DNA from: Planctomycetota bacterium | GTDB taxonomy: Bacteria > Planctomycetota > Phycisphaerae > Sedimentisphaerales > Anaerobacaceae | DNA length: 34,819 bases | Assembly (NCBI GenBank): GCA_026386835.1 | Contig: JAPLMV010000183.1 | Span: forward strand, 1 to 34,819 | Reading direction: 5' to 3' | In this document: positions 2,103-33,363 of the stretch, piece after piece | How positions within the stretch are numbered: position 1 is the stretch's first letter | Layout of the letters: each line of letters opens with the position of its first letter | Translations under genes and position numbers: made by a program | Notes under the pieces: model-generated | Database searches by the model: none | What the model was told of the DNA's origin: nothing | What the model saw: the letters and a program-made list of their open reading frames with translations, nothing else

Positions 2103-2170
2103 GATATTCCCGGGTGTCGTTTAAGAAACCGATTTGGAGTTGGAAATAGTTGATTGGCGGTAATTTTACG

Positions 2171-2959: not shown

Positions 2960-2965
2960 TGGATG

Positions 2966-3015
2966 GTGATTAGTGATTCGCAGATTCGAACCACTAACCA
3001 CGAATCACAAACCAC
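2966..3015. repeat. Imperfect inverted repeat (15-nt arms, 13/15 complementary, 20-nt loop) between cooC and cooS
   Basis: GTGATTAGTGATTCG (2966-2980) pairs with CGAATCACAAACCAC (3001-3015). The core GTGATTCG/CGAATCAC is perfect. It belongs to the same ACGAA-rich repeat style seen at 16150-16210 and 16620-16650. Confidence 0.5.
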
Positions 3016-3032
3016 GAAAGAGTGAGGTATTT

Positions 3033-4963: not shown

Positions 4964-4982
4964 GGATAGAAGAGGTTAAAAT

Positions 4983-7169: not shown

Positions 7170-7231
7170 AATTAGCATATAGTTAAAACGTTAAGGCGAA
7201 AAATTTTATTTAAAAGGATAAGGATGAAGTT

Positions 7232-8569: not shown

Positions 8570-8578
8570 AAGTTAAAA

Positions 8579-10489: not shown

Positions 10490-10503
10490 AAAGAAAAACA
10501 AAT

Positions 10504-11247: not shown

Positions 11248-11263
11248 CATTGGAGGATTTCAG

Positions 11264-12223: not shown

Positions 12224-12264
12224 AAACTATTGAAAGCTGGAGATTTGGAAAGGAAAGGTTTGAT

Positions 12265-12996
12265 ATGATACTGATAGGAGAAAGAATTAACGGAATGTTC
12301 ACGGACGTCAAGCAGGCCATTGCCGACAAGAATAAAAAGGTCATTCAGGACCTTGCCCAAAGACAAACGCAGGCTGGTGCAACATATCTTGACGTAAATG
12401 TCGGCACCGCAGCCGCTGACCAGGAAGGCACTATTCAATGGCTGGTCGAAACACTGCTTAATTCGGCACCTTTGAATAAAAAGACCGATGAGGAAATATT
12501 ATACAAGTATATGGAAATGGCGGAAAAGGCAGGCCCAAAGGCAAATCTTATTGCCCTTGCAATGGATAAAAACGGCGTGCCGCAGGACACTGATACCCGC
12601 GTGGCGATAGCCGCTGAAATTCTGCAAAAAGCACTGGAAAGAGGGTTTGAAACGCAGAGGCTGTTCATCGACCCGATTGTTCTGCCTGTCAAGGTGCCCA
12701 ACGCTCAGACCCAGCCGGCAATTATCCTTGCGGCGATGGACCAGATTCGGCTTTTGGCAGACCCGCCGCCGCATATGACGGTAGGTCTCTCGAACCTTTC
12801 GCAGGGTGCAGCCGAGAGAAGTCTCATTAACCGTGTATTCCTCGCGATGGCTATGTCGCACGGCCTGGACTCGGCAATTGCCGATGTCTTCGACGAAAAT
12901 CTAATGAATGCCGTTGCCACTTGCGATATGTTAATGAACAGGCAGATATATTCCGACAGTTTCCTTAAAGTATATGCAACGGCGAACAAAAAATAG
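12265..12996 (+). CDS. acsE: Methyltetrahydrofolate:corrinoid/iron-sulfur protein methyltransferase (apparently about 24 aa shorter than canonical AcsE)
   Basis: ORF 12214..12996, trimmed to the ATG at 12265 (MILIGERINGMF, the canonical AcsE N-terminus). It retains the pterin-binding barrel motifs YLDVNVG, LFIDPIV, GLSNLSQ and LDSAIAD. The expected LDS...MINS segment is not found. Confidence 0.85.
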   Translation: MILIGERINGMFTDVKQAIADKNKKVIQDLAQRQTQAGATYLDVNVGTAAADQEGTIQWLVETLLNSAPLNKKTDEEILYKYMEMAEKAGPKANLIALAMDKNGVPQDTDTRVAIAAEILQKALERGFETQRLFIDPIVLPVKVPNAQTQPAIILAAMDQIRLLADPPPHMTVGLSNLSQGAAERSLINRVFLAMAMSHGLDSAIADVFDENLMNAVATCDMLMNRQIYSDSFLKVYATANKK

Positions 12997-13043
12997 CATA
13001 TAGGAAAAACGCTGCACAAATTACCAATCACGAGTCTTGAAAT

Positions 13044-14807: not shown

Positions 14808-14824
14808 TTTGCCAGGAGCGATAG

Positions 14825-15706
14825 ATGACTGCACGGATTATAGATGGCGCAAAAGTCGCTGCCGACATGCGGGCCGAACTGAAAGAACACGTTGCAGAAC
14901 TTAAGAAACAAGGCATTGTGCCCGGCCTGGGTGTTATTCTTGTCGGACAGGACCCCGCTTCAAACTCTTATGTTACCGCCAAAGAACGCGCCTGCGCAGA
15001 GATTGGGATTTATTCCGACGACAACCGCCTGCCCGCACAGACATCTCAGAAAGATTTGATTGCCCTGATAAAGAAAATGAACGCCGACCCCAAAATCAAC
15101 GGCATCCTCGTGCAGCTTCCTTTACCCAAACACCTAATCGAGGACCAAGTCCTTATGACCATCAGCCCCGACAAGGATGTGGATGGTTTTCATCCGACAA
15201 ATGTCGGCAGAATGGTCGTGGGCGAAAAGGCGTTTTTGCCCTGTACGCCGCACGGCGTTATTCAATTACTGATTCGCAGCTCCGTCACCATCGATGGTTC
15301 ACATGTGGTAATTGTCGGCAGAAGCAACATTGTGGGCAAACCACTTGCGAATATGCTCATTCAAAAAAGTCCGACCGGCAACGCCACTGTAACTATTTGT
15401 CATACCCGCACAAAAAACCTTGCCTTCCATACAAAACAAGCTGACATAGTCATCGCTGCTGCGGGCAAACCCAACACTATTACTGCGGATATGATAAAGC
15501 CCGGTGCAGTGGTTATCGATGTGGGTGTCAATCGTATTGAGGATTCGACGAAAAAAAGCGGCTACCGTCTTGTGGGTGACGTTGATTTTGAAAATGTAAA
15601 GGAAAAGGCAAGCCTGATTACTCCTGTCCCCGGCGGCGTCGGACCAATGACCATAACTATGCTGCTTTACAACACCGTCGAATCTGCAAAACGGAACGCT
15701 GAGTAG
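14825..15706 (+). CDS. folD: Bifunctional methylene-THF dehydrogenase / methenyl-THF cyclohydrolase
   Basis: 293 aa with an AGGAG RBS and the motifs [27 protein letters not shown] and [10 protein letters not shown]. Confidence 0.95.
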
Positions 15707-15724
15707 TTTTTTGCGCATAATAAT

Positions 15725-15751
15725 GGCCGTGAGTGTCTGTGCCCCACGGCC
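15725..15751. terminator. GC-rich hairpin between convergent folD and the 95-aa ORF (possible terminator)
   Basis: GGCCGTG (15725-15731) pairs with CACGGCC (15745-15751) around a 13-nt loop. There is no clean U-tract, so the call is tentative. Confidence 0.3.
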
Positions 15752-15800
15752 AACAAGGAGTAGTATTGTGTCAACAATCAAGAAACAGAAAGTTTATAGG

Positions 15801-16088
15801 TCAGCCTTTTCTGGCTACTAATTTTTCTTTGCCTTGCCTCTCATCTAACTTCTGCTTGACAAATTCGTACACACTACAGGCAGTATCCTTGGCCACGACC
15901 CCCAATCGGCTGACCGCAACATAAAAGTTTTGTTTGAATTCCCCCGGCTTTACCTCCGACAATGCATCGCTTTTTACAAAAGTGTTTGCCCCCGCATGCA
16001 AAGCAGGATTGGCATGTGCCGTCGTCAAACAGTAAACCGCAGTTGCGAAACCAGCAAAGTAAACAACCATCAGAAATAGGATTTTCAC
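15801..16088 (-). CDS. Small hypothetical secreted or membrane-anchored protein
   Basis: 95-aa ORF with a GTG start preceded by AAGGGGGG. The N-terminus is hydrophobic and signal-like (MKILFLMVVYFAGFATAVYC). No family recognised. Confidence 0.5.
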   Translation of the reverse strand: MKILFLMVVYFAGFATAVYCLTTAHANPALHAGANTFVKSDALSEVKPGEFKQNFYVAVSRLGVVAKDTACSVYEFVKQKLDERQGKEKLVARKG

Positions 16089-16099
16089 TTTCCAGCCCC

Positions 16100-16860
16100 C
16101 CTTGTAAATTTCTTCAAATTACCTAAAATAGTTTGTAGCAAGAGAGTTCATGGTTCGTAGCAAGACTTTGCCACGAAATACGTACTACGAACTATCAACT
16201 ACGAACTTATTTATCTATCTCTGCCCAATTAAAATATAACATAAAAAAAAGGCTTTGCCAAATCGCAGGGCCGGTCGTTCCATATTTTCTACCATTGCTG
16301 AGATTGGGTTTGATTGGGTTTGTTTTGCATAATAGTCCACATCCCATAATTCGTTGTAATTCCTTGTATTTACTAATGTTAAAACATTTTTAGCATTTTG
16401 AAAATTGGGTTTGTTTTGCATAATTTGATATTTTTGGTCGAAATATTTTTAGCCAAGAACACAGAACTCAGTCCGTAAGGACTCCATAGGAGAACACAGT
16501 ACCCAGAATAAGAGAATAAAAATTCCATATAGAGAAAACACGATAAATCGTGTACTCCAAACGAGGACAGAAAAACTGCGTCCCTATAAAGGGGGGAAGC
16601 TGCGCGTTTGGTCGAAAAAAGTTCACCACGAAGCTCACGAAGAGCACGAAGAAAAGTCATAACTAATTGTAAAATAAAGAGTTAAAAATGGTGAAAAATT
16701 TTTTAAAATTTCCGTTTTTGCCTTTTGGATACCTGCGCGTTTGGCCGAAGTCGTGTTGCGTATATCGTATATAGTATTGCGTTATTTAGGGAAAGCGGTT
16801 TAACGGTGGAACGGCAATAAAGAGCATAAGGCATGAAGAGAGTTTTGGGTTCGTAGTTCA
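16100..16860. repeat. Repeat-laden non-coding region (short direct repeats and REP-like low-complexity motifs)
   Basis: The 21-mer ATTGGGTTTGTTTTGCATAAT occurs at 16313-16333 and 16404-16424. The 10-mer ATTGGGTTTG is tandem at 16303-16322. CTGCGCGTTTGG(T/C)CGAA occurs at about 16600 and about 16732. CACGAAG and TACGAAC runs lie at 16140-16210 and 16620-16650. The only ORFs here are translations of these repeats. Confidence 0.6.
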
Positions 16861-17091: not shown

Positions 17092-18072
17092 TTATGTGTA
17101 GAGTGTGCCTGTATTGATTACCGGATGCACCTCGGTTTCACCACATAGTACCACCATAAGGTTGCTGACCATAGAGGCCTTTCGCTCATCATCGAGGATG
17201 ACGACTTTTTGTTCGGAAAGCTCACGAAGAGCCATTTCGACCATACTGACCGCACCGTGGACAATTTTTTGTCGTGCGGCAATAATAGCCTCAGCCTGTT
17301 GGCGGCGAAGCATTGCCTGGGCTATTTCAGGAGCATAGGCCAAATGTGTAAGACGTGCTTCTTCCACAAAGACACCTGCCTTTATCAATCGTTCCAGGAG
17401 CTGTTCCCGAAGAGCCTTTGAAACCTCATCAATACTGCTTCGAAGCGTAAATTCGTTTTCTTCTCCATAGTCATAGACATATGAACTTGCCAGATGACGG
17501 ATTGCAGATTCACTTTGAATTTTTACATAATTCTCGTAGTCATCAACATCAAAGGTTGCCTGGGCAGTGTCTGCAACACGCCAGACTACTACAGCAGCTA
17601 TTTCGACAGGATTGCCGCGTTTGTCATTGACCTTAAGTTTGTCGCTGTTAAAATTCCTTGCTCTAAGCGATATTTTATATCTATGTTTTGGAAAAGTGAT
17701 AGAGATCTGCGGGCCTTTATAATCTTGTTGTACAGTTTTAACGGCTGGGCCACTGGCATAGAAAGGATTGGCCCAATGAAAACCGCTGGTACGAACAGTA
17801 CCGTGGTATGCTCCAAATAAAATCAAGACGCGTGCCTCGTTAGACTGAAGTGTAAAAAATCCACGAAACATGATTAAGCTGGCGATAATAATTAATATGC
17901 TGCCAACCAGATTCAGCCGAGCAATACTTCCAGTTCTTTCGGTTTGAATGATAGTATGCACAAGCAGCCAGATACCCAGGCCGAGCAAAGTTATGTTAAT
18001 CAACAACATAGGCCACCCACTTAAAACTTTAATTTCTTGTTCTTTGCTTGTTTTAATTGTTATCCCGTTCAT
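17092..18072 (-). CDS. SPFH/Band 7 (stomatin/flotillin-like) membrane protein
   Basis: 326 aa. It has two N-terminal TM segments, then an SPFH core ([13 protein letters not shown] ... [11 protein letters not shown] ... IRHLASSY) and an alanine/glutamine-rich coiled region ([23 protein letters not shown]). Confidence 0.85.
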
Positions 18073-19890: not shown

Positions 19891-20201
19891 AAAAAATCCT
19901 TCCAAACCGCCGTTACTCCTTCGAACAGCACAAATCACAAAATGTTATTATACTTTTTTACGGCCGATAAATCAAAGACATTCCCACGCTGGTCTTGCTG
20001 ACGATTAGACTCTATCGTTTTTGTTCTCGCTCCGATTGCGCCATTTTTAATAAAACCCAAAGTACTTATGGGACGTATTAATACAGAGAAGGCTGTAGAT
20101 TGATAGTAATTGGAGTTTGTAAGTTTAACACTAAATGCACCCTTATTTAACGCCGAATAAGGACATAACTTAGGGTATAGCTAAGAATGAGGGTTAAAAA
20201 A

Positions 20202-20780
20202 ATGGCAAAAGGTAAAAATGTGCTGACGACAGGCGACGTGGCAAAAATTTGCAATGTCGCTCCGCGTACAGTTTCAAAATGGTTCGATAATGGCCAGTTG
20301 AAGGGCTATCGCATACCAGGCAGCAAGGATAGAAGGATTCCTTTAAGCGAGCTTATTCGTTTTATGAAGGCAAACAATATGCCCATCACAGCTCTGCCTG
20401 TGGGCAAAATCCGGGTTCTTGTGGTAAATAGTGATTTGAGCACAGCCGATGCTCTGGCAGAGACTCTGCAAAATAAGGCCGGCTACGAAGTCCAGATTGT
20501 TAAAAGCACCTTCGAGGCCGGCGTAACAGCCCAGAAGTTCGCACCGCATGTATTATTGGTAAGTCTCTTGGCCAAAGATATAGATGCGATGGACATCAGC
20601 AGAAATATCCGCTCAAGCGATGATTTGCAGACCATCAAAATTATAGCCCTTGCGAATAAATTAAGCGATTCGGAGTCCGCCGCCCTTATGCAAAAGGGTT
20701 TTGACGGCTATGTATCCAATGCCGCTGACATCAACGAGGTAATCAGGAAAATTGAAGAAGCGACCGCGATTATTTATTAG
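20202..20780 (+). CDS. Excisionase/MerR-type HTH fused to a receiver-like domain
   Basis: ORF 20187..20780. The ATG at 20202 follows GAGGG. The N-terminal HTH is LTTGDVAKICNVAPRTVSKWFDNGQLKGYRIP. The C-terminal part has a CheY-like fold pattern (RVLVVNSD ... HVLLVSLL ... KIIALAN ... GFDGYVSNA). Confidence 0.7.
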   Translation: MAKGKNVLTTGDVAKICNVAPRTVSKWFDNGQLKGYRIPGSKDRRIPLSELIRFMKANNMPITALPVGKIRVLVVNSDLSTADALAETLQNKAGYEVQIVKSTFEAGVTAQKFAPHVLLVSLLAKDIDAMDISRNIRSSDDLQTIKIIALANKLSDSESAALMQKGFDGYVSNAADINEVIRKIEEATAIIY

Positions 20781-20812: not shown

Positions 20813-20846
20813 AAAAAAAGGCCGTCCCCGCGACCGGCCTTTTTTA
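20813..20846. terminator. Bidirectional rho-independent terminator
   Basis: An A-run, then AGGCCG-tccccgcgac-CGGCCT, then a T-run. It lies between the convergent HTH-receiver gene and the minus-strand sigma/anti-sigma operon. Confidence 0.7.
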
Positions 20847-20867: not shown

Positions 20868-21080
20868 TCACTTGGCAATTTTGAGACGATGCCTGTCTAA
20901 AAGAATACAGGTGCATATACTATTTTTATCAGACAAAATTGCCGCCTTCGAATTAAAGGCCATAAGAAGATATGGGTCTTTTGTATAACGGGCTTTTGCA
21001 GCAGGCACACCAACAGGCTGAATATCGTACCTGGCACCTGCCACAAGGTTTTTCGTATAAGCCGTGTTTATCGTGTCCAT
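20868..21080 (-). CDS. Hypothetical small protein downstream of the anti-sigma gene
   Basis: ORF 20868..21140. The internal ATG at 21080 is preceded by AGGAAAA and avoids overlap with the upstream gene. It lies between the anti-sigma stop and the terminator. No family recognised. Confidence 0.3.
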   Translation of the reverse strand: MDTINTAYTKNLVAGARYDIQPVGVPAAKARYTKDPYLLMAFNSKAAILSDKNSICTCILLDRHRLKIAK

Positions 21081-21108: not shown

Positions 21109-22434
21109 CTATTTTTGTTGCGGTATCTCGGACGAATCACCTATACTTAAATCTCCGTAAATCACACGATAGGTACCTGTATCATCGGATTTCCACCAGC
21201 AAATCGGCTCGTTTGTTTCGCCAAGCCGAATGCCGTCTCCCGCGTAACCCCACTCGCCATAGATTCTTTGCTGCTGGGCAAATACAAGAGCCTTTAGTAT
21301 CTTATTCAGTACAGGCATAGCCAGTTCAAGTTCATCCACTGGGTTACCGCCTTTGGCGAATTTTTCCACCAGTATCGGCTTAACCATGTTTGGGTCGACG
21401 AGGTCTTTAATTGCCGATGGGAAGAATCCATCCGACATTTCCGACCATAAGGCAAGTACTTCAATCAGGCCTTGCTCGTCAGGATTAGACACATCAAGCT
21501 GTTCTTGCTCCACAGCGTAATCAGGCGGCGGCTCGATGCTGAAAAGCGACGGGTCAAGGTTGGCATCCCATACAAAATCGCTTATAACCATAATCATCTT
21601 TTTTACCATACCGCCACCGCCGTAAAACGAGATGCCTTTTGTGATTATCATTTCTCCTTCTTTTACCTCTTCGAAATCATCTGAACGTAAGGCCATCTCC
21701 GGCGATATAATCTCTTTATCCGGATTCGGGATAATTTCCCTTTCTACCCGAACCGGCAGGTTGGTTTTGGGGTCAACCCATACGGTGGTTTTTTCATATT
21801 CCTGCTGAAAGAGGAATACATCGACTGCCTGACCATCGAGCACCTGCTGCCTCGTGAATTGTCCCGTTCTGTCTTTTAGTTTGGTAACCCAATTGAGATA
21901 ATTGAAAGGCTGCTTTCTTTGTTTCATCCCTATTCGTTGAGTTATTGTTGCCTTTTTCTCGTTAGGATACAATTGCAGATCTCTGTTCAGAGCCAAATCG
22001 GTGATTGAAATTGAGTTATTAAAAGTTGTGCGAATATGACCCGGCTCCATTACCATCTCTTCCACTGTAGTGGGAGGATTGTCCTCAGTTTTGATGGTTT
22101 CCCTGTAAGTTACCGTCCTGGCATTATAAATCTGTTCCATAACATCTGCCCAGACGACAGCCGTTCCATCAATCCGTACGCCGAATTGATGCAATCCGAA
22201 AAGTATTCCAATAATTATTACCGCAGCCGCTGCAAACCTTAACATCTTAGTTTTCATAATTGACCCCCATATTCTTACTATTTTTATTTGGTTCGAGATT
22301 TCTTTCTTTTCTGACATACTGACAAAAACCCTGCGGACCCGCTCCATAGCCCGTGCGGTTGACTCCGGGCTGGGCTTGATTTGTGAAATCAACTCTAATC
22401 GGCGCAGAATTTCCTGTTCGTCAGTCCTCGGCAT
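21109..22434 (-). CDS. Putative anti-sigma factor: single-pass membrane protein with a large extracytoplasmic domain
   Basis: ORF 21109..22473. The ATG at 22434 overlaps the sigma gene stop by 14 nt, suggesting translational coupling. It has a short cytoplasmic N-terminus, one TM segment (MLRFAAAAVIIIGILFGL) and about 360 aa outside the membrane. The call rests on position and topology only. Confidence 0.55.
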   Translation of the reverse strand: MPRTDEQEILRRLELISQIKPSPESTARAMERVRRVFVSMSEKKEISNQIKIVRIWGSIMKTKMLRFAAAAVIIIGILFGLHQFGVRIDGTAVVWADVMEQIYNARTVTYRETIKTEDNPPTTVEEMVMEPGHIRTTFNNSISITDLALNRDLQLYPNEKKATITQRIGMKQRKQPFNYLNWVTKLKDRTGQFTRQQVLDGQAVDVFLFQQEYEKTTVWVDPKTNLPVRVEREIIPNPDKEIISPEMALRSDDFEEVKEGEMIITKGISFYGGGGMVKKMIMVISDFVWDANLDPSLFSIEPPPDYAVEQEQLDVSNPDEQGLIEVLALWSEMSDGFFPSAIKDLVDPNMVKPILVEKFAKGGNPVDELELAMPVLNKILKALVFAQQQRIYGEWGYAGDGIRLGETNEPICWWKSDDTGTYRVIYGDLSIGDSSEIPQQK

Positions 22435-22969
22435 CACGTCCCCCTTTTTTTGAATAACGTAATTCTTTGTCACTTAGTAAATATCGAATGTGCATCAGCG
22501 CCTTAAAACACAAGGCACATACCTGATTTGGCGTCTTGCCCATTTCGCCGGCTATATATTCATAGCTCTGCTGCTGGATATATCGCATTACAAATGCCTC
22601 ACGGGATGCGCCCCGAAACTGCGCTATGGCGCCAAGCACCTCTTCTATTTCTTCGTTTTGGGCGAATTTGCTCGACGGGGAAATCAAATCTGAAACCGGC
22701 TCAGGAACATCGTCCAGCCGGCAGGCACTTTTATCTCTGGCCTTGCGCCAGTCGAAAGCCATGTTGACTGCTGTCCTGTGTGCATAAGCAGCCAAGTCTT
22801 TGACCTTATCAAGACCTTTGAAATTGGCAAGTTTTACAAACAATTCCTGCATTAGTTCCTCGGCGATATCTTCGCGCAGCACCAACCGTGCCAGCAACGT
22901 GTGCAACTCCGTCTCTGAACGCTCAAAAACCTCTAAAAGTCGCTGCAAACCACCCTGCAACACAAACAC
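22421..22969 (-). CDS. ECF (group 4) RNA polymerase sigma factor
   Basis: 182 aa. The region 2 pattern is DIAEELMQELFVKL ... AYAHRTAVNMAFDWRK. Region 4 is AFVMRYIQQQSYEYIAGEMGKTPNQVCALCFKAL. The true start is probably GTG or TTG 2-3 codons inside the ORF, downstream of the AGGAG. Confidence 0.85.
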   Translation of the reverse strand: MFVLQGGLQRLLEVFERSETELHTLLARLVLREDIAEELMQELFVKLANFKGLDKVKDLAAYAHRTAVNMAFDWRKARDKSACRLDDVPEPVSDLISPSSKFAQNEEIEEVLGAIAQFRGASREAFVMRYIQQQSYEYIAGEMGKTPNQVCALCFKALMHIRYLLSDKELRYSKKGGRDAED

Positions 22970-23217
22970 TCCTGACTAATTCACTTCTATTAGTAAGACT
23001 GTTGACTACGTCCAAACACAACCGGAATTTTGCCTTTTTTTAAAAATTTTTCAATATTTTATAAAAAACGGCCAAAACGTGCTAAAAAGGAGGGTGGGAT
23101 TAGCTCTACGGAGTAGATATTTTTTAAAAATGCTATGCTATGGTAAAAATAGCATACGGCGTTGTTGGACGGCGAAAGGGTTGGATGGTTAAACGGTAAA
23201 ACGGTAAAGAGAAAAAT

Positions 23218-23289
23218 GGTAGGGTAATGGTTCGACTGGTTCGACAAGCTCACCACAGGCTCACTCACCATAAAAGACCCTACCCTACC
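23218..23289. repeat. REP-like hairpin element
   Basis: GGTAGGGTA (23218-23226) pairs with TACCCTACC (23281-23289). The arms enclose a tandem GGTTCGAC GGTTCGAC and CTCACCACAGGCTCACTCACC. Tandem AACGGTAAA repeats lie just upstream (23190-23208). Confidence 0.5.
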
Positions 23290-23308
23290 AGACTCCGTCG
23301 AAATTTCT

Positions 23309-24901
23309 TTATGAAAGCATTATATTCTCCATATAGTCCAGCGCATGGGGATTTTTCTCAAGTACCGTGCAGTAGTCGACTAACAATTTATGTGCCCGAA
23401 AGCGATGCCCTTGGCAGGCGGTTTTTTTGAGAAGTCCGGTCGGCTTTTCTCCATCGGATATGTTAGACCAGCATCCCAATTTGCATGTATGCAGACACCA
23501 GCAATACCGGCACTGGTCTTTGGTAAAGTCCACCCAGTCGCTCAGTAACTGCTTTATTTTAGCTATATCCAAGCCATTCTCGACGTCGCCGATTTTCATA
23601 TATTCACTCTCGGGAACTCGCTCACAGGGCCAGTAGTCGCCGTCGATGCTCAGGTACGTCCGCTGCGTGCCAGGGACACACGTCGACAGCGAGCAGAAAC
23701 GTTCGGGAAGAATTGTGTGATTATGGATATGGCACTGATAAATCTGGAATCTTTTATGGAAAAAAAGCCAGTCCTGCTCGTTCATCTCCCTTTGCAGCCG
23801 GTATGCCGTGGCCGATACATCTGAATTAATCCTGCCCGCAGCGAGATTGTTGATAAATCTTTTATACAGCAAATCGAAGCCGGTTATTTTTCCAGTTGGA
23901 CTAATCTTGCTTCCGACCTGGTCCACAAAGGCCGCCTTTACACCGATATGCCTGTCGAATAAATCGCAGGAAACTAAGAATTTATCCAGAATATCGATAT
24001 CTAACGGCGGCGCCATTACCATATTGAAGCTTAGTTTGTCGTTTGTCCTATATTGCGGGTACTTGTCGAGAAATGCCCTTATGTTGGATGTTACCTTTTG
24101 CCAGGTGGGCAGGCCGTTTTTGTAGCGGCGATACCGGTCGTGGATTTCTCTGGGACCATCTATGCTGACTACAATGCTGAAGTTTTCTGAGGCAAGAAAA
24201 TCCGCTGCATCGCCGGTTAATAATGAGCCGTTTACGGTAATTGAAAAGATAATGTCTTTGCCCCTGTCGCTTTTCTTGACATAGCCGACACATTTTTTGA
24301 TAAGAGGCAGGTTTAACAGTGGCTCACCTCCATAGAAACCTATCGACCTGATTTTGGCAGAGCCGCTTTGCTGCATATAGCAGTCGATACCTTTTTTTGC
24401 AATGCTCCATTTCATTTTTCGTCTCGAAAGGGCATGCCGTCCGGCGTATTGGCCGCTGTAAACACAATAGCAGCATCGAAAATTGCAGTCCTCGGTAACA
24501 AGTAAAATAAGTATTTTGCGTTTATTGTTCAGCTTTTGCCTTATATCATCCTCGGTCATAGTCAGCTCAACCTGCGGGCGATTCGAGAGAAACAAATTTT
24601 TATCCCGCTGAGCAATTGCAATTTCGTCACACGCCGATGAGATTTCAGCCATACTGAATTGCCCGCGATACTTAGAAAAGATTTCTTCTTTGCCAAGTAT
24701 TCCGAAATCGCCGATAATTTCCCACACAACGGGAGTAACCCGCACTATTTTCATCGTATTAACGTCATAGATGTACTTGTTTTCCCTCGTTTCAAACCGG
24801 TGTACAAACGCCGTCGCAGGATTTTCCACAACATCGGAAGTTTTTTCTTCGATGTCAGAGGATAAGGGCATATTTCCAGAACACTTTCCAATCTCAGTCA
24901 T
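23309..24901 (-). CDS. Radical SAM/SPASM-domain peptide maturase with an N-terminal RRE-like extension
   Basis: 530 aa with an AAGGAAA RBS. The CX3CX2C motif CNFRCCYC is encoded at 24464-24487. The C-terminus has a full SPASM signature (CVPGTQRTYLSIDGDYWPC = CX12GX4C, then CRYCWCLHTCKLGC = CX2CX5CX3C, then a later Cys). About 110 aa precede the rSAM core (FVHRFETRENKYIYDVNTMKIVRVTPVVWEII...), as in RiPP recognition elements. Confidence 0.9.
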   Translation of the reverse strand: MTEIGKCSGNMPLSSDIEEKTSDVVENPATAFVHRFETRENKYIYDVNTMKIVRVTPVVWEIIGDFGILGKEEIFSKYRGQFSMAEISSACDEIAIAQRDKNLFLSNRPQVELTMTEDDIRQKLNNKRKILILLVTEDCNFRCCYCVYSGQYAGRHALSRRKMKWSIAKKGIDCYMQQSGSAKIRSIGFYGGEPLLNLPLIKKCVGYVKKSDRGKDIIFSITVNGSLLTGDAADFLASENFSIVVSIDGPREIHDRYRRYKNGLPTWQKVTSNIRAFLDKYPQYRTNDKLSFNMVMAPPLDIDILDKFLVSCDLFDRHIGVKAAFVDQVGSKISPTGKITGFDLLYKRFINNLAAGRINSDVSATAYRLQREMNEQDWLFFHKRFQIYQCHIHNHTILPERFCSLSTCVPGTQRTYLSIDGDYWPCERVPESEYMKIGDVENGLDIAKIKQLLSDWVDFTKDQCRYCWCLHTCKLGCWSNISDGEKPTGLLKKTACQGHRFRAHKLLVDYCTVLEKNPHALDYMENIMLS

Positions 24902-24949
24902 AATAGTTTCCTTAACAGTAAAAAAAGTTGATATATTTTGTACGGTATA

Positions 24950-24964
24950 TAAGACCTGGTCTTA
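24950..24964. promoter_or_regulatory. Perfect 7-1-7 palindrome upstream of the rSAM gene (candidate operator)
   Basis: TAAGACC-T-GGTCTTA, 49-63 nt upstream of the rSAM ATG (24901). Confidence 0.35.
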
Positions 24965-25159
24965 CAGATTTGGCTTTTCTGCTCTATATCTTTGTCATTC
25001 TAAAAAAAAGGCGTGTCTGGTTACGGCCTGACTTGTATAAAACAATACTTTACTTTAGTGCTCAATAGGTGCACCTAAAGGATTCGGGTTGCAGCAATCA
25101 GGCACGCCCTTGCAACCTTTGGCAAAGAAATAAGGTTGTTAGAGTACCTCAGGGAGGCC

Positions 25160-25339
25160 TCATCCACCTTTTACGCCTCCGAAGGTACTTGCTATTGCAC
25201 TGCTGGAGTTGGAAGCGAAATTGGTGTTAACGCACGCTTCTGTGCAACCGCAGGTACACGTACATCCGCACGAGCATCCTCCTCCGTCAGGCAGGTTCTC
25301 CATACTTGGAGTTTCATGGAAATTAGTTACATCAATCAT
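25160..25339 (-). CDS. Cysteine-ladder small peptide, candidate RiPP precursor (59 aa, absent from the ORF track)
   Basis: Hand translation of the minus strand gives AAGGAG (25352-25347), a 7-nt spacer, an ATG at 25339 and a TGA at 25162-25160. The peptide is MIDVTNFHETPSMENLPDGGGCSCGCTCTCGCTEACVNTNFASNSSSAIASTFGGVKGG. It lies 53 nt after the upstream gene and 258 nt before the rSAM/SPASM gene on the same strand. Confidence 0.75.
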   Translation of the reverse strand: MIDVTNFHETPSMENLPDGGGCSCGCTCTCGCTEACVNTNFASNSSSAIASTFGGVKGG

Positions 25340-25392
25340 TTTAAATCTCCTTAAAAAAAGTTAATAATTCTTTCGTAGAAAAAACGGTTTAA

Positions 25393-26475
25393 CTACTTAA
25401 GACCCGGGTTTTCGCTATATGTAACAATTTCAGTTATGTCGCCGGCTAATTCCCCGCGTAATAACGCATTTCGCTGTTGAGGACCAAGAAACGTCGGCAG
25501 GCGTCTGCTGTATCTGTACTCGTCTGGGTATTTATTCGAAGGAACCAGATAAACCTGAAAGCCGAACTTATATTTCTTATCCAGACTGTTTTTGAAGTTG
25601 GCCATGGTCTCGCTGTATCGTCCCCAGCCGCCTATGGAGGCATTATCCCGCAGCCATTGGATAACTTCCTTTGCTGCGGCAGTATTATTCCGCTGGAGAA
25701 GAAACGCCAAGTCGCAGCCGCACAAAAAATCATTCATTGTGGGATTTCGTCCGCTGTTAATCTGGCTTATGATTTGCTCAAACTGTCTGGCTCGCAGGTC
25801 CAGAAGCGTTTTTTTAATCTCACCGTTTGGAACTGTTTTATTTGTTTCCTTGTCAAGCTTAACTATCAGATTGGCGGCCTGTATGGCCTCAATCAATTCA
25901 TTTGTTATGGTCAAATTATCCGGATTGCGCTGGTGGCCGTATTCTAGCAGAATCCTTGCCATATACGCATCTCGATACGCAGTACGCGAAAGGTCTCCTC
26001 CTGCCAGCCAGAAATTTCCCAGCAAGTTATGAGCAAGCTCGACAAGTTTCTCATCCGAAAGGTTCGTGATGTCTGTTTTTGCCGTAAGTTCTTTCAGTAA
26101 TTGCTCACGGACCTGAGAATAATCAGGCCAGGTCGCCATAACCTCATCCTGGGTCTTCCATATCCGCTCTGCGGCTGCTGAATTTATCAGCAGGTCTATC
26201 TGCTGATCATCAAAAGGCTTAGGCAGTTCCGCTTGCGAGATTGTATCTTTAACCGGCAACTGGTTTTTGTGGTCTTCCACAACAGCTATGTGTTCAACCT
26301 TTGCTTTGTGGCTATCCGTCAAACACACGTTGTTAGCATTCTTTATGCCGATTAACGGCGTTTTTTTAATATCGGGCAATTTTTTACCCTTGCCCTGCCA
26401 TATGAAAAATACCGCAGTTGGTACAAAGACCAGGATAACCATAAGCAGCAAACCTGTTTTAGTCGTAATTTTCAT
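25393..26475 (-). CDS. Hypothetical membrane-anchored protein (N-terminal TM, helical extracytoplasmic domain)
   Basis: 360-aa ORF with a GGAAA RBS. It has an N-terminal anchor (GLLLMVILVFVPTAVFFIW). No catalytic motif or family recognised. It lies immediately upstream of the Cys-ladder ORF. Confidence 0.7.
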   Translation of the reverse strand: MKITTKTGLLLMVILVFVPTAVFFIWQGKGKKLPDIKKTPLIGIKNANNVCLTDSHKAKVEHIAVVEDHKNQLPVKDTISQAELPKPFDDQQIDLLINSAAAERIWKTQDEVMATWPDYSQVREQLLKELTAKTDITNLSDEKLVELAHNLLGNFWLAGGDLSRTAYRDAYMARILLEYGHQRNPDNLTITNELIEAIQAANLIVKLDKETNKTVPNGEIKKTLLDLRARQFEQIISQINSGRNPTMNDFLCGCDLAFLLQRNNTAAAKEVIQWLRDNASIGGWGRYSETMANFKNSLDKKYKFGFQVYLVPSNKYPDEYRYSRRLPTFLGPQQRNALLRGELAGDITEIVTYSENPGLK

Positions 26476-26821
26476 TCGCCGTATTTCCTTTCACATTTAC
26501 CGACACAACTCATCAGCCAATGTATAGACTGCGTGCTTTGTATACCATTAAACGTTTGGTAAATGTTTTAGCGGGTGTGAAGGGAAATGAAATCTTGAAA
26601 AACCGGTATTGCGGGATGTTAGTGTAAAATGAACATGAACGGAAAAAGCAGATTTTGGCTCACAGGTAAAGAGATGAAAATGGCGATGATGAGAATACTT
26701 TGGTATTTCATTATTCTCGATATTTATTTGTCAGAACCAGTTTTCCCCGCCATGGCTTGACATTAGCCGTTTTTTTATTCTGCCAGGCTCTCCGGCAGTA
26801 ACCTCTCCCTTGTTGATATGG

Positions 26822-27253
26822 CTATTTGGCAATCTTCTCGTACCGACTTTTTTCGCTTTCAGCCGGCGAGATCGTCCTTATGGAAACAATACCCTTCAGC
26901 CCAAGTACATTGGCAACGGTGGTTTGAAAAAACTCATCGGTGGTATCTTCAGTTAGAACAGCACAAACCCCTGAACTTCGAGCGGCAATTTCCTGTGCCT
27001 GGTCGCCGGCTTTTATGAAAACTATCGTTGGAATTTCAGGCTTCACGGCCTTTAATCTCTTCAGGAATAAGCCGTTCTTCATATCATCCAGGTCCCACTT
27101 GCTGATAACGCTGTCAACTCTTTCATTTTTCAGCGAACGGGCGGCTTCACTGCCGGACGACATTGCTATCAAACGAAGAGGCAGTTCCTGCAAAGCCTCA
27201 TTTTTGTCGCCCAGACCAACCGTTAGCACATTTGCCTGAACTAACACAATCAT
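26822..27253 (-). CDS. Stand-alone receiver-like (CheY-fold) protein with degenerate phospho-acceptor site
   Basis: 143 aa with a GAGGAAA RBS. VDSVISKWDLDDMKNGLFLKRLK aligns with CheY [23 protein letters not shown], placing Lys where Asp57 should be. The N-terminal acidic pair is replaced by QAN. Confidence 0.6.
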   Translation of the reverse strand: MIVLVQANVLTVGLGDKNEALQELPLRLIAMSSGSEAARSLKNERVDSVISKWDLDDMKNGLFLKRLKAVKPEIPTIVFIKAGDQAQEIAARSSGVCAVLTEDTTDEFFQTTVANVLGLKGIVSIRTISPAESEKSRYEKIAK

Positions 27254-27351
27254 CTTATTTCCTCAAACGTAGTCTGTTAAATTGACTATAGTACCTTCCA
27301 TTGTTTTCGTGCAGTTACTTCAACTATCGAACATCTATTGGCATCGCGGGT

Positions 27352-27484
27352 AAAGCCACGTCTAATCTCGTGCTGGGTCTGTCGTTCAACCTTGAGTCGA
27401 CAACAGCAAACCCAGCGAAGAAGAGGAGAGAGAGAGAGTTTTTTGCCTCTTTATAAATTCACGGTTAAAACCGTGCTGGCTTTC
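27352..27484. repeat. Conserved 133-nt non-coding element, copy A (possible structured sRNA)
   Basis: Near-identical to 27656-27788. It contains the complementary pairs AAAGCC/GGCTTT (termini), GCTGGGT/ACCCAGC and CACGGTT/AACCGTG, plus an (AG)6 tract followed by T6. Confidence 0.8.
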
Positions 27485-27655
27485 GTGCCGGGCCTGTTAA
27501 CTCGTTTTGGTCAACCAAGCCCAGCTTGGGGGAAAGAAAACTCCTCGCGAGCATATATATAATCACGGTCCAATACTGACCATGCCTGCTCTCAATTTAG
27601 CATTATCAAAGAGCGAACTATCGAAAAAATACCAACCACTATTTTAATCGCAGCA

Positions 27656-27788
27656 AAAGCCGCGTCTAATCTCGTGCTGGGCCTGTCATTCAACTTTGAG
27701 TCAACAACAGCAAACCCAGCGAAGAAAAGGAGAGAGAGAGAGAGAGTTTTTTGCCTATAAATTCACGGTTAAAACCGTGCTGGCTTTC
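27656..27788. repeat. Conserved 133-nt non-coding element, copy B
   Basis: Same architecture as copy A, 304 bp downstream. It differs by a few point substitutions, (AG)8 instead of (AG)6, and a 4-nt deletion after the T6GCCT. Confidence 0.8.
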
Positions 27789-28181
27789 AAATATCAAACT
27801 TATCAAAGAACTTCTTTTTCATCACCATCAATCGAAGCCTTTCTTTCCTGTTGCACTAATACATATTAGCGAAGGCTGTGCCAAAGTTGTGCCAGAAAAT
27901 AAATTTTTTTTAACTCCTTATTCCGGCAATACTTACGTATCCCAAATTTTTTGCCGGCATCGCAGACTATTTTTGAGTGGATTGACCATTATAGCCGCAA
28001 GAAAGGGTATATTATTCCAGCAACGTTTTGTGTTTGCTGGCGTTAGCAATCAATCGACCATTTTGGCCTGGGGTGACCAAACCGGTCGCTTTTGAATTCC
28101 TGTCACGTTTTTTCTCTTTCGGTATCTATATATTATGAGGTTATAATATAAAATGAACAATAAGTATGGAGCAGTTCAGAA

Positions 28182-29603
28182 ATGCAAAGCGAACCTGAAT
28201 TATTAAAGTCCAGTTTGGCAGGGAATAGGGAAGCTTTCGGCGTGATTGTTAAGGGCTATCAATCCCTGATTTGCGCAATCACCTACAGCTCAACCGGAAG
28301 TCTCAGTAAAAGCGAAGAACTGGCACAGGAAACATTTCTGATAGCCTGGCGAAAACTTGGTCAACTCAAAGACTTGAATAAGTTTAGAGCATGGTTATGC
28401 ACAATTGCACGGAACGTCGTCGGCCAATCAATCAAGCGTGAACAAAGGGACATAATACATAATGCCCAGTCCATCGAAAACCTGAAAACAATTGGTGCAG
28501 CAAAACCACAGCCATGCGATTTGGCGATAAGTAAGGAACAGGAGGCAATTATTTGGCAGGCTCTGCGTGATATTCCCGAACAATTTCGTGAGCCGATGGT
28601 TTTGTTTTATCGTGAACACCAATCTGCAAAGACTGTGGCTCAATTTCTTGGAATTTCTGAAGACGCTGCCAAACAACGGCTGTCGCGAGGCAGGCGGATA
28701 CTCAAAGAAAATGTCGCCGCACTTGTGGAAGAAAAGCTCGAACGAACCACGCCAGGAAAGGTTTTTACTATCGCAGTTATAGCTGCGCTGCCGGGTATTA
28801 TCCCACAGGCAGCGAACGCTGCAATCGCCGGAATAGCTGCAAAAAGTTCCATTGCGGTCAAATCGGCTGTTTTTGCAAATTGGCTCGGTATATTAGGACC
28901 GCTGGTCGGGCTTATAGGAATGCTTTTAGGAATTCGAGCCAGCCTCAAAAATGCTGCCTCTCCACGGGAATGGAAGTTTATTAACTGGACCGCGTTTATA
29001 CAAATTACCTATTGTTTTGTATTAGCAGCCGTTACGATTCCTTTTGTTTTATGGTGGCGATTGTGGCGCCACCACTCATCTTGGCTTATTCTTCTTATAT
29101 ATGTCCTTTTCCTTCTCCCCCTAATCCCTTTTACAATCTGGGCAAATCGTCGGGAGAAACAGATACAGATAGAAGATGGTACTTACATCGAGCCGCAGTA
29201 CCGGATGCTCAGGATGACCAGCAGAGAAATTTATGCGGCATTCGCAGGAGCTGTCTTCGGTTCCCTTCTGTGGTTATATAGGGTTGCAGTTGAGGCTCAG
29301 GACTGGATAGTGTTGTGCGTAACGATAGCTGCTGGTTTTTTGATTTTTTCCCTCGCAGTTAAAGTCACTTTGCGGGCTAAAGAACATGGCTTTAAGATTG
29401 CCATCGGTACATTTATTGCTGTTGGCTTGCTGCAGCTCGCAATAGTTAATCTGCGGTGGGATAGATGGGTTTATATCCTTAAAGCTAAGAATATCACTCT
29501 TTGGCAAATTAATTTTATCATCATAGCATTTGTGGTGCTGCTGGCGTTGATAGCTCTATTTTTCGATTTCCAGCATCGCAGGAATAGTAAAAAAAACGAT
29601 TAG
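28182..29603 (+). CDS. ECF sigma factor fused to a C-terminal polytopic membrane domain
   Basis: 473 aa. The N-terminal 190 aa hold sigma70 region 2 (EELAQETFLIAWRKL ... AWLCTIARNVV) and region 4 (REPMVLFYREHQSAKTVAQFLGISEDAAKQRLSRGRRIL). About 280 aa with many hydrophobic helices follow (for example VFTIAVIAALPGII, WLGILGPLVGLIGMLLGI, SWLILLIYVLFLLPLIPFTIW, INFIIIAFVVLLALIALFF). Confidence 0.8.
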   Translation: MQSEPELLKSSLAGNREAFGVIVKGYQSLICAITYSSTGSLSKSEELAQETFLIAWRKLGQLKDLNKFRAWLCTIARNVVGQSIKREQRDIIHNAQSIENLKTIGAAKPQPCDLAISKEQEAIIWQALRDIPEQFREPMVLFYREHQSAKTVAQFLGISEDAAKQRLSRGRRILKENVAALVEEKLERTTPGKVFTIAVIAALPGIIPQAANAAIAGIAAKSSIAVKSAVFANWLGILGPLVGLIGMLLGIRASLKNAASPREWKFINWTAFIQITYCFVLAAVTIPFVLWWRLWRHHSSWLILLIYVLFLLPLIPFTIWANRREKQIQIEDGTYIEPQYRMLRMTSREIYAAFAGAVFGSLLWLYRVAVEAQDWIVLCVTIAAGFLIFSLAVKVTLRAKEHGFKIAIGTFIAVGLLQLAIVNLRWDRWVYILKAKNITLWQINFIIIAFVVLLALIALFFDFQHRRNSKKND

Positions 29604-31742: not shown

Positions 31743-33363
31743 TTACTCTTTCTCTTGGCTGTCTAACTGATGCAGGTGCTTTTGCAGGCGAGGGTTCAGT
31801 TCATCCAATTGCTTTTGGTCAACTTCGCTCGGTGCATCGGTCAAAAGGCACTGACCTCGCTGAGTCTTTGGGAACGCAATGACATCTCTGATGTTATCGG
31901 TGCCTGTCAAAAGCATAATCATTCTGTCAAGGCCCAGGGCAATTCCGCCGTGCGGCGGAGCGCCGTATTCTAGCGCCTTTAAGAAGAACCCGAACTGCTC
32001 GTGTGCCTGCTTCTTTGAAATGCTCGTCCTGGTTCCACTCAAACAGCGGGAAATCCACAATCCAGACAAATTCGAATTGGGCTGGGTCATAAAGATTCAG
32101 GTCTTTGCCCAGTTTGCATCTTAATGGTGCAAGGGCCTTATTGGCTGCCTTTTCGGTATCAGCAATAATCAGAATCAGGTCGTCGTCCTTTGCGACGAAG
32201 CGTTCAATTATCTGTTGCTGCTGCTCCTGGCTGAAAAACTTGGTGATGCTGCTGTTAAGTCCTGACTTACCGTTTTCGTTTTTGACCTTAAACCAGGCTA
32301 GGCCTTTGGCGCCGTAGTCGCCGACAAAATCGGTGAGGGTTTTTTCAATATCGCTTCTCGAATATTTTCCGCCGCCCGGAGCGCATAGCCCTTTTACGAT
32401 GCCGCCTTTTTCAACAGCCGATGTAAATACCTTAAACGTGCTCTGCTTTGCGATATCCGATATGTCCCTTAGCTTCATATCGAAACGCAGGTCAGGCCGG
32501 TCGATTCCATAATCGTCCGCCGCCTGCTTATATGTCATTCGGCGAATCGGCGTTTTGACTTCGATGCCGAGTATTTCCTTCCAGATTTTTGCAATCAATA
32601 CTTCGTGGAGGCCTATGACGTCGTTGGTGTCGATAAAACTCATCTCAACATCTATCTGCGTGAATTCCGCCTGCCTGTCCGCCCGCGGGTCTTCATCGCG
32701 GAAACAACGCACAATCTGAAAATATTTATCGACGCCGCTGACCATAAGAATCTGCTTAAAAAGCTGCGGCGACTGTGGAAGCGCATAAAAACAGTTACGC
32801 ATAAGCCTGCTCGGCACGAGAAAATCCCTCGCGCCTTCGGGGGTGCTTTTTGCGAGCATCGGCGTCTCTATTTCCCAGAAGCCCAGCTTGTCGTAATAAT
32901 CGCGGGCAAGCTTTGTTACGCGATGGCGGATTTTCAGCCTCTGCTGCATTTGGGGTCTGCGAAGGTCGATATATCGGCTGGCAAGACGAGTCTCCTCGGC
33001 GGTCTTGTCGGCATTGTCGATTTCAAAGGGGGGTGTCTTCGCAGTGTTGAGTATCTCCATCTGCTCGACATTCACCTCGATTTGACCAGTGGGGAGTTTG
33101 GGGTTCTCAAGACCCTGGCCTCTTGGCCCAACCACACCCTGGGCTGCTATTACCCATTCGGTACGAACCGTTCGTGCCAGCTTGTGGGCATCAGGGCATT
33201 TTTCAGGATTGAAGACAAGCTGTGTAAGACCCTCGCGGTCGCGAAGGTCGAAAAATACCAGATTGCCGTGGTCGCGGTAGGAATGTACCCATCCCGCTAA
33301 AATTACTTTTTTGCCGGCGTCTTCGAGCCGAAGCTGGCCGCAATTATGTGTGCGTTTCAACAT
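31743..33363 (-). pseudogene. aspS: Aspartyl-tRNA synthetase with an internal out-of-frame deletion (two overlapping ORF fragments)
   Basis: ORF 31927..33363 encodes the OB-fold, motif 1 and motif 2 (FRDEDPRADRQAEFTQIDVEMSF) up to [11 protein letters not shown], then runs into nonsense. ORF 31743..32090 is homologous only from [38 protein letters not shown] (motif 3). The HHPFT and GGGSIRIH segment expected between them is absent. Confidence 0.85.

Follow-up and report, generated by a model that had tools for sequence, protein, structure and literature searches.

We examined a 34.8-kb window of DNA from a Planctomycetota bacterium (contig JAPLMV010000183.1, positions 1 to 34,819; WIN where loci are compared), in which a string of seven minus-strand genes includes a gene for a small cysteine-rich peptide and one for a radical S-adenosylmethionine (rSAM) enzyme. 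This cluster is a genuine, conserved module for a peptide that is made ribosomally and then modified after translation (RiPP), and it is an uncharacterized planctomycete branch of a known Firmicutes system. The first-pass annotation of the sequence had proposed an uncharacterized RiPP module of a Cys-ladder precursor, a maturase with RiPP recognition element (RRE), rSAM, and SPASM domains, and a membrane-anchored protein of 360 aa (here p360), with an extracytoplasmic function (ECF) sigma factor and an anti-sigma factor as company, and this proposal held up. All seven open reading frames (ORFs) that it had placed on the minus strand were recovered in our ORF listing, and each is preceded by a Shine-Dalgarno-like motif, the strongest being the AAGGAG of the peptide gene. 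Regarding chemistry and role, we infer with reasonable though incomplete assurance that the module makes and exports a multi-thioether (sactipeptide- or ranthipeptide-like) peptide, and that this biosynthesis and signaling module is coupled to envelope ECF signaling. Related loci from our genome and metagenome scans carry labels such as L003, L081, and L088, and in-clade loci are those among the matches listed in these scans. Among these matches, the nearest named metagenome-assembled genomes belong to Phycisphaerae/Phycisphaerales (39-42%), which together with ECF models of planctomycete type points to a planctomycete-like host.

The precursor gene (25160..25339, minus) encodes a 59-aa peptide made up of a leader (aa 1-21, MIDVTNFHETPSMENLPDGGG; 25277-25339), a Cys ladder (aa 22-36, CSCGCTCTCGCTEAC; 25232-25276), and a tail rich in Ser, Ala, and Asn (aa 37-59; 25163-25231). 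Its ribosome-binding site is AAGGAG-N7-ATG, and the Cys-rich core is encoded 258 nt upstream of the rSAM gene. Translating the window in all six frames gave a single (CX)>=4C match (25244-25276, minus), against a chance expectation of 0.01 matches per window on average in mononucleotide shuffles. The ribosome-binding site, the conserved leader M-I-D/E-x-T-x-F, and the hypervariable (CX)n core mark this ORF as the genuine precursor that the first-pass annotation had taken it to be. A profile search of 5.8 billion proteins identified 14 related peptide clusters, none of them named, with a common leader and hypervariable cores. Among the genes of the cluster, that of the peptide shows the lowest conservation in DNA sequence (46-67% identity vs 80-93% for its neighbors) and evolves fastest. 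RiPP precursors typically show this combination of a conserved leader and a diversifying core. For the window peptide and four clade relatives there were no NCBIfam matches, even at E<=10.

Ladder peptides adjoin homologous rSAM genes (33-86% identity) in loci from Planctomycetota, Desulfobacter, Aminicenantes, and Firmicutes, and do so in nearly every related locus examined. Looking for the contrary pattern, namely homologues with no Cys-rich ORF or an enzyme of the anSME family, we found that the Cys-rich ORFs are kept and that the enzyme is not an anSME. The close relatives L081, L082, and L083, whose rSAM enzymes are 76-86% identical to that of the window, retain the leader as MIDVTNF.ET or MIEVTSFEET and differ in their cores, which in L083 amounts only to CMCLVC. 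The arrangement of peptide and rSAM is also retained in six distant loci: the peptides of L086 (MITETEF...YCACGCPCFDYC), L087 (MIEETSF...CICRCDCTCQCVGC), and L088 (MIEVKNF...CPCSCNCYCTC) carry a recognizable leader, L089 has two peptides with 12 ladder cysteines each, L170 has two that both begin MIEVTSFDGG, and L171 completes the set. In a second arrangement (L003, L004, L090, L092, and L172), the peptide lies downstream of the rSAM gene and has a longer leader with a similar I-E-D-T-x-F-G motif.

The number of ladder cysteines varies together with the length of the tail, taken as the residues after the last ladder cysteine. Among type-A peptides, the leader stays steady at 21-30 residues and the tail lengthens with the cysteine count, from 9-12 aa with three ladder cysteines to 12-19 aa with five, 22-28 aa with six or seven, and 44 aa with 12. 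Across 12 collapsed lineages the correlation was r = 0.95, and it was r = 0.80 (p = 0.005) when the two 12-Cys peptides were left out. The sactipeptides subtilosin, thurincin H, and ruminococcin C are nested hairpins, and scaling of this kind is expected if each cysteine links to an acceptor in the tail as it does in them. The tail therefore probably carries the acceptor residues, which would give the product a hairpin topology.

The maturase (530 aa; 23309..24901, minus) was identified by Pfam, NCBIfam, and PDB matches. Pfam recognized Radical_SAM and Fer4_12 domains. The rSAM motif CX3CX2C (C139/C143/C146) and a complete set of SPASM cysteines (C408, C426, C464, C467, C473, C477, and C496) are invariant in 38 homologues; this combination of CX3CX2C and a SPASM domain with a seven-Cys auxiliary-cluster motif is a feature of the sactipeptide/ranthipeptide class. 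The best PDB match was the SCIFF maturase CteB (5wgg, 1e-36), with an alignment spanning the N-terminal leader-binding region, the rSAM core, and the SPASM domain. Maturase residues 29 to ~110 align to residues 3 to ~90 of CteB, which form its leader-binding domain, and on this alignment the N-terminus is a predicted RRE; the motif FVHKF-T-NKY-YDVNT within it is conserved across the clade. These cysteines and the N-terminal alignment uphold the domain assignment made in the first-pass annotation.

Among NCBIfam models, the best match was to CcpM (TIGR04068), full length at 329 bits (328.9) and below the 500-bit cutoff, followed by the RumMC, lachnocin, nif11, SCIFF, and PapB maturases. The score below the cutoff indicates a sister clade of CcpM rather than a CcpM equivalog, and on sequence we place the enzyme in the CcpM/RumMC/CteB lineage, as a sister clade of CcpM and RumMC. 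RumMC (NF035951) was the second-best family, again matching over its full length, with 242 bits (241.8) vs a cutoff of 720. RumMC is itself an RRE-rSAM-SPASM enzyme that makes several links from Cys sulfur to alpha-carbons, giving hairpin-like peptides. Unlike in the RumMC system, the window precursor does not resemble RumC, and the Cys spacing and gene neighborhood are different. The SCIFF maturase model (TIGR03974) scored 165 bits (165.1) vs a cutoff of 425. Although CteB, the thermocellin enzyme, is the closest solved structure, SCIFF precursors carry six Cys in 45 residues and have a different, highly conserved sequence, their clusters have neither p360 nor an ECF pair, and the window peptide has no match to a SCIFF model. 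The anSME model (TIGR03942) reached 97.4 bits vs a cutoff of 349, and the cluster contains no sulfatase gene.

The first-pass annotation had found no fit of the peptide and its gene company to the families that it listed. This needs correcting: the nearest relative of the window system is CcpM/CLI_3235 (TIGR04068/TIGR04065), which was absent from that list. CcpM has been called "previously annotated" rather than characterized (PMC9062424). The two systems share the best-scoring enzyme family, an adjacent peptide with a Cys-rich core, an ECF sigma factor, and, in relatives of the window, an MsbA-like ATP-binding cassette (ABC) exporter with no C39 domain. Firmicutes CcpM precursors also resemble that of the window in having a (CX)n ladder followed by a Ser/Ala-rich tail, for example ACGCACSCDCACDC in L024. 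This locus, from Paenibacillus turicensis, is a canonical cluster of ECF sigma factor, MsbA-like ABC exporter, CcpM, TIGR04066 protein, ladder peptide, and subtilisin; its rSAM enzyme scores 610.7 bits on TIGR04068 and is a bona fide member, and the cluster content agrees with Table 3 of the paper on SacP23 (PMC10731318). SacP23 is a CLI_3235/CcpM product from Paenibacillus polymyxa that was heterologously expressed and was active against methicillin-resistant Staphylococcus aureus (MRSA) (PMC10731318).

There are also differences from the CcpM system. The window rSAM enzyme is only about 30% identical to CcpM, and the leader M-I-D/E-x-T-x-F is unrelated to the leader MKKLGKK...EAY of the CcpM system. 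Peptides beside Firmicutes rSAM homologues match TIGR04065 (CLI_3235) or TIGR04067, two of these Firmicutes neighbors matching TIGR04065 at 1e-10 to 1e-11, whereas the window peptide and four clade relatives have no match to TIGR04065. Among the matches listed, 88 Firmicutes-type loci have the TIGR04066 partner but none of 19 in-clade loci does, and no ORF of the window cluster matches it. The subtilisin gene is missing as well, and the unrelated p360 holds the position of the TIGR04066 partner. The anti-sigma factor and p360 are additional to the CcpM gene set, and the phylum is different. The window module thus departs from CcpM in enzyme score, precursor model, and partner protein, and shares with it the adjacent Cys-rich peptide. 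Descent of the clade's ECF sigma factor from that of the Firmicutes CcpM cluster was considered and rejected, the two having no detectable similarity.

The p360 gene (25393..26475, minus) encodes a protein anchored in the membrane by an N-terminal signal-anchor helix, from which a disordered linker leads to a ~210-aa all-helical domain (residues 98-303). Pfam and NCBIfam scans of p360 returned no match, and its relatives, identified by exhaustively searching 1.84 billion representatives with a profile, comprise 179 cluster representatives. In the AlphaFold (AF2) model the all-helical core, residues 98-303, is confident (predicted local distance difference test scores of 76-95). Using a hidden Markov model (HMM) of the family, we found p360 directly adjoining the rSAM gene in at least 12 loci (WIN, L081, L083, L086-L091, L093, L170, and L171), in which rSAM identity falls as low as 35% and the flanking genes differ; the same HMM found no p360 in the 88 Firmicutes-type loci listed. 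The inclusion of the anchored protein in the module, as first annotated, is borne out by this recurrence, and p360 is a new protein family and a clade-specific partner of the rSAM enzyme. It is not a divergent TIGR04066 partner (hhalign probability 0.1%).

The p360 relatives have two architectures, a stand-alone anchored form of ~360 aa and a form of ~600 aa fused to an anti-sigma factor. The fused protein P0130 has a cytoplasmic N-terminus, a transmembrane (TM) helix, a beta-rich middle like that of the window anti-sigma factor, and then the p360 domain, and its gene is translationally coupled to that of an ECF sigma factor. In P0130 and about 20 other representatives, the p360 domain follows an anti-sigma N-terminus and a LolA-like domain. 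The N-terminus and TM segment of p360 (MKITTKT plus helix) align with the MK-K-x-TM segment of the fused anti-sigma factors, which places the p360 domain outside the cytoplasm. By sequence, p360 appears to represent, as an independent protein, the sensor domain that is elsewhere fused to ECF anti-sigma factors, and the fusion ties it to regulators rather than to catalysis. Its conserved residues are W/Y/F, D/E, R, and G; because neither His nor Cys is conserved, a binding module is more plausible than a protease. The idea of p360 as the leader protease found no support, given also its all-helical fold and lack of any structural match below E=0.001. We also asked whether the C-terminal domain of the window anti-sigma factor is p360-like; it is not, since the stand-alone p360 HMM matches the TM segment only.

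The ECF sigma factor (182 aa; 22421..22969, minus) has Sigma70_r2 and r4_2 domains and matches TIGR02937 with 60 bits (cutoff 42.9). The anti-sigma factor (441 aa from the ATG at 22434; 21109..22434, minus, ORF to 22473) has a helical N-terminus in the cytoplasm and then a TM helix (aa 63-83), followed by a LolA/RseB-like beta domain in the periplasm (aa ~95-310) and by a C-terminal domain. The translational coupling noted in the first-pass annotation is real: the ATG overlaps the sigma stop by 14 nt, and the overlap is kept in L081, L083, and L088. Foldseek matched the AF2 model of the periplasmic domain to LolA (8cgm_A, 2e-8) and RseB (2p4b, 4.5e-6), and no Pfam anti-sigma domain was matched at the N-terminus. 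The pair has the sigma regions 2 and 4, TM helix, and LolA-like sensor of ECF sigma/anti-sigma systems, and we infer that the anti-sigma factor binds the sigma factor.

ECF pairs recur beside related clusters. In L088 the order is p360, peptide, rSAM, ABC exporter, sigma factor (46% identical), and anti-sigma factor (42% identical), despite different flanking genes (secretin, BipA). In L171, where the genomic context is unrelated, the order is sigma factor, anti-sigma factor (38% identical to that of L088), p360, peptide, and rSAM. Homologues of the window anti-sigma factor adjoin rSAM genes in L088, L090, L003, L004, L171, and L172; of these, L003, L004, L090, and L172 carry a homologous LolA/DUF2092-type anti-sigma factor and its sigma factor convergent with the peptide gene. 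L086, L089, and L170 have FecR-type anti-sigma pairs just upstream of p360. This recurrence, together with the fusion of p360 to anti-sigma factors, makes a functional link the better reading of the adjacency. Of the flanking genes that the first-pass annotation had grouped with the module, the sigma and anti-sigma genes thus recur despite differing flanks, and the pseudo-receiver and small ORF (described below) are kept only in close syntenic relatives.

According to the first-pass annotation, the cluster also lacks an ABC exporter, a C39 peptidase, and any further kind of leader protease, and we found none of these among the cluster ORFs. The missing exporter is, however, peculiar to WIN and one close relative, L083, in which no ABC exporter gene follows the rSAM gene although the peptide, rSAM, and p360 genes are intact. 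In L081, L088, L089, L091, and L170, an MsbA-like ABC exporter gene (620-640 aa, with no C39 peptidase domain) lies directly after the rSAM gene. Because the exporter is present in most relatives, its absence favors export encoded elsewhere, which was one of the options raised originally, or loss. In the window its place is taken by a gap (22970..23308, minus) that contains about 190 nt of extra repetitive sequence compared with L083. No remnant of a degraded exporter was found by tblastn in this ~340-nt gap or elsewhere in the window. The exporter is ancestral to the module and was lost in the WIN lineage.

A long hairpin followed by a U8 tract (25000..25111, minus; -45.7 kcal/mol, z = -2.0) separates the peptide and rSAM genes. 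L081 and L083 retain both arms of the stem and the T-run, and a comparable hairpin lies 3' of the peptide gene in L086. It is likely a leaky terminator that would set the ratio of peptide to enzyme transcript. Upstream of p360, a non-coding block of 215 nt (26476..26690, minus) matches the flanking genes in conservation, with 85-93% identity between WIN, L081, and L083. Within it lie the palindrome AAACGTTT and an element AACGTTTAAT...CGCAG...ATAC, both of which also occur in the distant locus L088. The block is probably a promoter, operator, or 5' untranslated region. The conserved non-coding blocks had no Rfam match at gathering thresholds and no tRNAs. At the end of the gene string, a consensus scan found an intrinsic-terminator-like hairpin and T-run (20820..20835, minus), in keeping with the strong terminator annotated there.

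A mechanism consistent with these observations would begin with the binding of the leader by the N-terminal RRE of the enzyme. The three-cluster rSAM/SPASM enzyme would then turn the ladder cysteines into thioether cross-links of the sactionine or ranthionine type. The acceptors would probably lie in the C-terminal tail, where we place them because peptides with more ladder cysteines have longer tails, and the product would be a zipped hairpin. The leaky terminator after the peptide gene may keep the precursor in excess over the enzyme. The product would be exported; with the dedicated exporter lost here, either another transporter may serve or the peptide may stay in the cell. Finally, p360 and the LolA-like anti-sigma factor may couple the peptide, or the resulting state of the envelope, to ECF-dependent transcription, which would amount to auto-induction or self-protection.

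Several observations weigh against this proposal. No chemistry has been established for the window clade or for CcpM, and the SacP23 paper left the cross-links undetermined (PMC10731318). The correlation of cysteine count with tail length is drawn from few, phylogenetically related peptides, and without the two outliers the rank correlation is weaker (Spearman 0.60, p = 0.06). The window itself has no exporter, leader protease, or recognizable immunity gene, and the ECF sigma factors of the clade have no pairwise similarity to that of the Paenibacillus CcpM cluster. For p360, Foldseek found no match in the PDB below E=0.001 and only a weak TPR-like resemblance. A fused p360-type anti-sigma factor also occurs with no rSAM gene nearby: L084 (972-7231) has three tandem ECF sigma/anti-sigma pairs, of which the third anti-sigma factor (603 aa) ends in a p360 domain, and no rSAM gene lies within 8 kb; what the p360 domain senses may thus be broader than the peptide. 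Comparing the regions upstream of p360 and the sigma gene across loci, we could define no ECF-type promoter; a scan for AAC-N-CGT found only AACGTTT(AAT) in common, and this only among close relatives and L088. Lastly, as the three tandem pairs of L084 illustrate, ECF pairs are plentiful in planctomycete genomes, so some of the adjacency could be due to chance, and the type of anti-sigma factor varies between loci.

The abundance of ECF pairs and the varying type of anti-sigma factor also favor a reading in which the functional unit is limited to the peptide and rSAM genes, and shared ancestry and the abundance of regulators would explain the presence of p360, the ECF pair, the pseudo-receiver, and the small ORF as neighbors with no functional relation to it. 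WIN, L081, and L083 are indeed syntenic far past the cluster (DegT, FolD, FTHFS, AspRS), so that shared gene order among them proves little, and the pseudo-receiver and small ORF are limited to these close relatives. We consider this reading improbable. It does not readily account for p360 beside rSAM genes at identities down to 35% and between differing flanks, for its absence from the 88 listed Firmicutes-type loci, which carry TIGR04066 instead, or for the same sigma/anti-sigma family beside the cluster in the unrelated contexts of L088 and L171. The product might instead be a secreted bacteriocin, as in Firmicutes CcpM systems, made by the same chemistry, with p360 as a membrane-anchored immunity protein and the ECF pair providing inducible self-protection. 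The killing of MRSA by heterologously expressed SacP23 is a precedent, antagonistic RiPPs typically have hypervariable cores behind conserved leaders, an ABC exporter is encoded in most relatives, and precursor genes are multiple in L089 and L170. L170 also has four tandem rSAM paralogues (10001-16745; 42-76% mutually identical); upstream of these are two ladder-peptide genes and a p360 homologue, and downstream an ABC exporter gene. However, WIN and L083 have lost the exporter while keeping the peptide, rSAM, and p360 genes intact, and the p360 domain is otherwise a sensor module of anti-sigma factors rather than a known immunity fold. A bacteriocin is a possible product, though not the favored one. 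A variant of the signaling proposal, in which the thioether-zipped ladder peptide is a dedicated extracellular signal rather than an antibiotic, and is exported, captured by p360 as a periplasmic co-receptor, and passed to the LolA-like anti-sigma factor to release the ECF sigma factor, we regard as speculative and unlikely.

Two further alternatives concern the chemistry. The ladder might serve chiefly as a metal ligand, the product being a metallophore or buffering Cu, Zn, or Fe as metallothioneins do, with the ECF pair sensing metal or envelope stress and the rSAM enzyme adding few links or another modification. Cores with 7-12 closely spaced cysteines and the metal-rich anaerobic metabolism encoded by the host (CODH/ACS cluster) would suit such a role. 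It is also kept in consideration by the precedent of the bufferins, cysteine-containing RiPPs that are controlled by the ECF sigma factor SigF and anti-sigma factor NrsF under metal stress (PMC11626156). The likeness goes no further than the genetic link of a cysteine RiPP to an ECF pair: bufferin maturases are MNIO rather than rSAM enzymes, their precursors have Sec signal peptides, which the window precursor lacks, and there is no sequence relationship. Moreover, the maturase belongs to a thioether-forming SPASM lineage (CteB, RumMC, PapB, and CcpM models all score) whose reaction would consume the thiols, and Pfam and NCBIfam identified no metal transporter or chaperone gene in the cluster, which makes a metal ligand quite unlikely. 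Alternatively, the enzyme might catalyze other chemistry, such as C-C or C-O cross-linking, epimerization, or an oxidation of the Cys-to-formylglycine type. Similar SPASM maturases catalyze many reactions, cyclophane, ether, and other families are among the weaker NCBIfam matches, the enzyme falls below every curated cutoff, and the chemistry of CcpM itself is undetermined. Yet the enzyme most strongly resembles thioether formers (CcpM-associated, RumMC, SCIFF/CteB, and PapB), cysteine is the sole residue type invariably enriched in the cores, and anSME models remain far under their cutoff (97 vs 349); a different chemistry therefore seems rather unlikely.

The proposed coupling of a thioether peptide to ECF signaling resembles the RseA/RseB control of sigma-E in that a membrane anti-sigma factor is combined with a periplasmic sensor of LolA-like fold. 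Unlike in RseA/RseB, the LolA-like domain of the window lies within the anti-sigma polypeptide itself, and neither Pfam nor NCBIfam gave evidence of sequence homology to RseA or RseB. The link of RseA/RseB-like sensing to a RiPP cluster is new. It is through the fusion pattern of the p360 family that the RiPP cluster is connected, via the LolA-like sensor, to ECF sigma/anti-sigma signaling, and if the peptide were the ligand of this pathway, it would represent a new mode of ECF activation. Should the signal hypothesis be true, the cluster would be a RiPP-based auto-induction circuit for quorum sensing or kin recognition in Planctomycetota, in which hypervariable cores and matching p360 variants act as specificity codes. 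Among open-licence papers we found nothing specific on the clade, on CxC-ladder RiPPs in Planctomycetota, or on rSAM RiPPs with anti-sigma factors. Cys-rich peptide systems of the CcpM type have been annotated for years and are chemically unsolved, and the clade offers a compact, well-delimited set of natural variants, with three to 12 ladder cysteines and tails that scale with the count, which makes the cross-link topology directly testable. The module also extends rSAM-modified Cys-ladder RiPPs to anaerobic Planctomycetota-like bacteria. To our knowledge, almost no natural products have been characterized from Planctomycetota.

The two outermost genes of the string are probably outside the core of the system and were not counted as core parts because they are restricted to close relatives. 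The pseudo-receiver (143 aa; 26822..27253, minus) matches Response_reg with 24.7 bits vs a cutoff of 30.2 and, outside the window, was found in just three close and syntenic relatives (L081, L082, and L083). It is degenerate, as annotated: K52 aligns with the phospho-acceptor D57 of CheY, K with T87, and T with K109. The small conserved ORF (70 aa from its ATG; 20868..21080, minus, ORF to 21140) recurs 3' of the anti-sigma genes of L081 and L083 at 79-87% identity. In L083 it is present twice (11630-11842 and 13236-13460), once behind each of two anti-sigma genes, which suggests that the ORF travels with the anti-sigma gene. A second ECF sigma factor, fused to a polytopic membrane domain (473 aa; 28182..29603, plus; Sigma70_r2 and r4), is divergent from the string. 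A 501-aa protein beside the L087 cluster is 36% identical to it, and more weakly related proteins are encoded close to the L083, L089, and L091 clusters. This second sigma factor may be associated with the window cluster.

Between the pseudo-receiver and this divergent sigma gene, we observed a non-coding tandem duplication of ~304 nt (27330-27790), with 109-nt copies that are 87% identical and exact repeats of 33 nt and 23 nt. It is absent from L081 and L083, which have a PEP-CTERM protein gene there instead. On the other side of the string, a convergent gene (20187-20780, plus) encodes a protein with an HTH_17 (excisionase/MerR-like) domain and a receiver, found at the same position in L081 and L083; the receiver is atypical, with no clear alignment to the acidic pocket of CheY.

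Elsewhere the window encodes an S49 (SppA-like) peptidase with an NfeD-like N-terminus (794-1885, plus) and an SPFH/Band-7 protein (17092-18072, minus), for neither of which we found a link to the peptide cluster. A complete Wood-Ljungdahl cluster (2150-15706, plus) encodes CooC-like ATPases, carbon monoxide dehydrogenase (CODH; Prismane), the beta subunit of acetyl-CoA synthase (ACS), both CdhD-type corrinoid protein subunits, a RACo activator, a pterin-binding methyltransferase, FTHFS, and FolD, which identifies the host as an anaerobe with a CODH/ACS pathway. The CODH gene is split into overlapping ORFs (2973-4475 and 4472-4963, plus) that cover profile positions 1-389 and 407-512; the split may reflect a frameshift, a pseudogene, or an error in the assembly. 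The aspartyl-tRNA synthetase gene (31743-33363, minus) appears similarly split into ORFs of 478 aa and 115 aa, possibly by a frameshift or assembly error, and is a single gene of 602 aa in L081 and L083.

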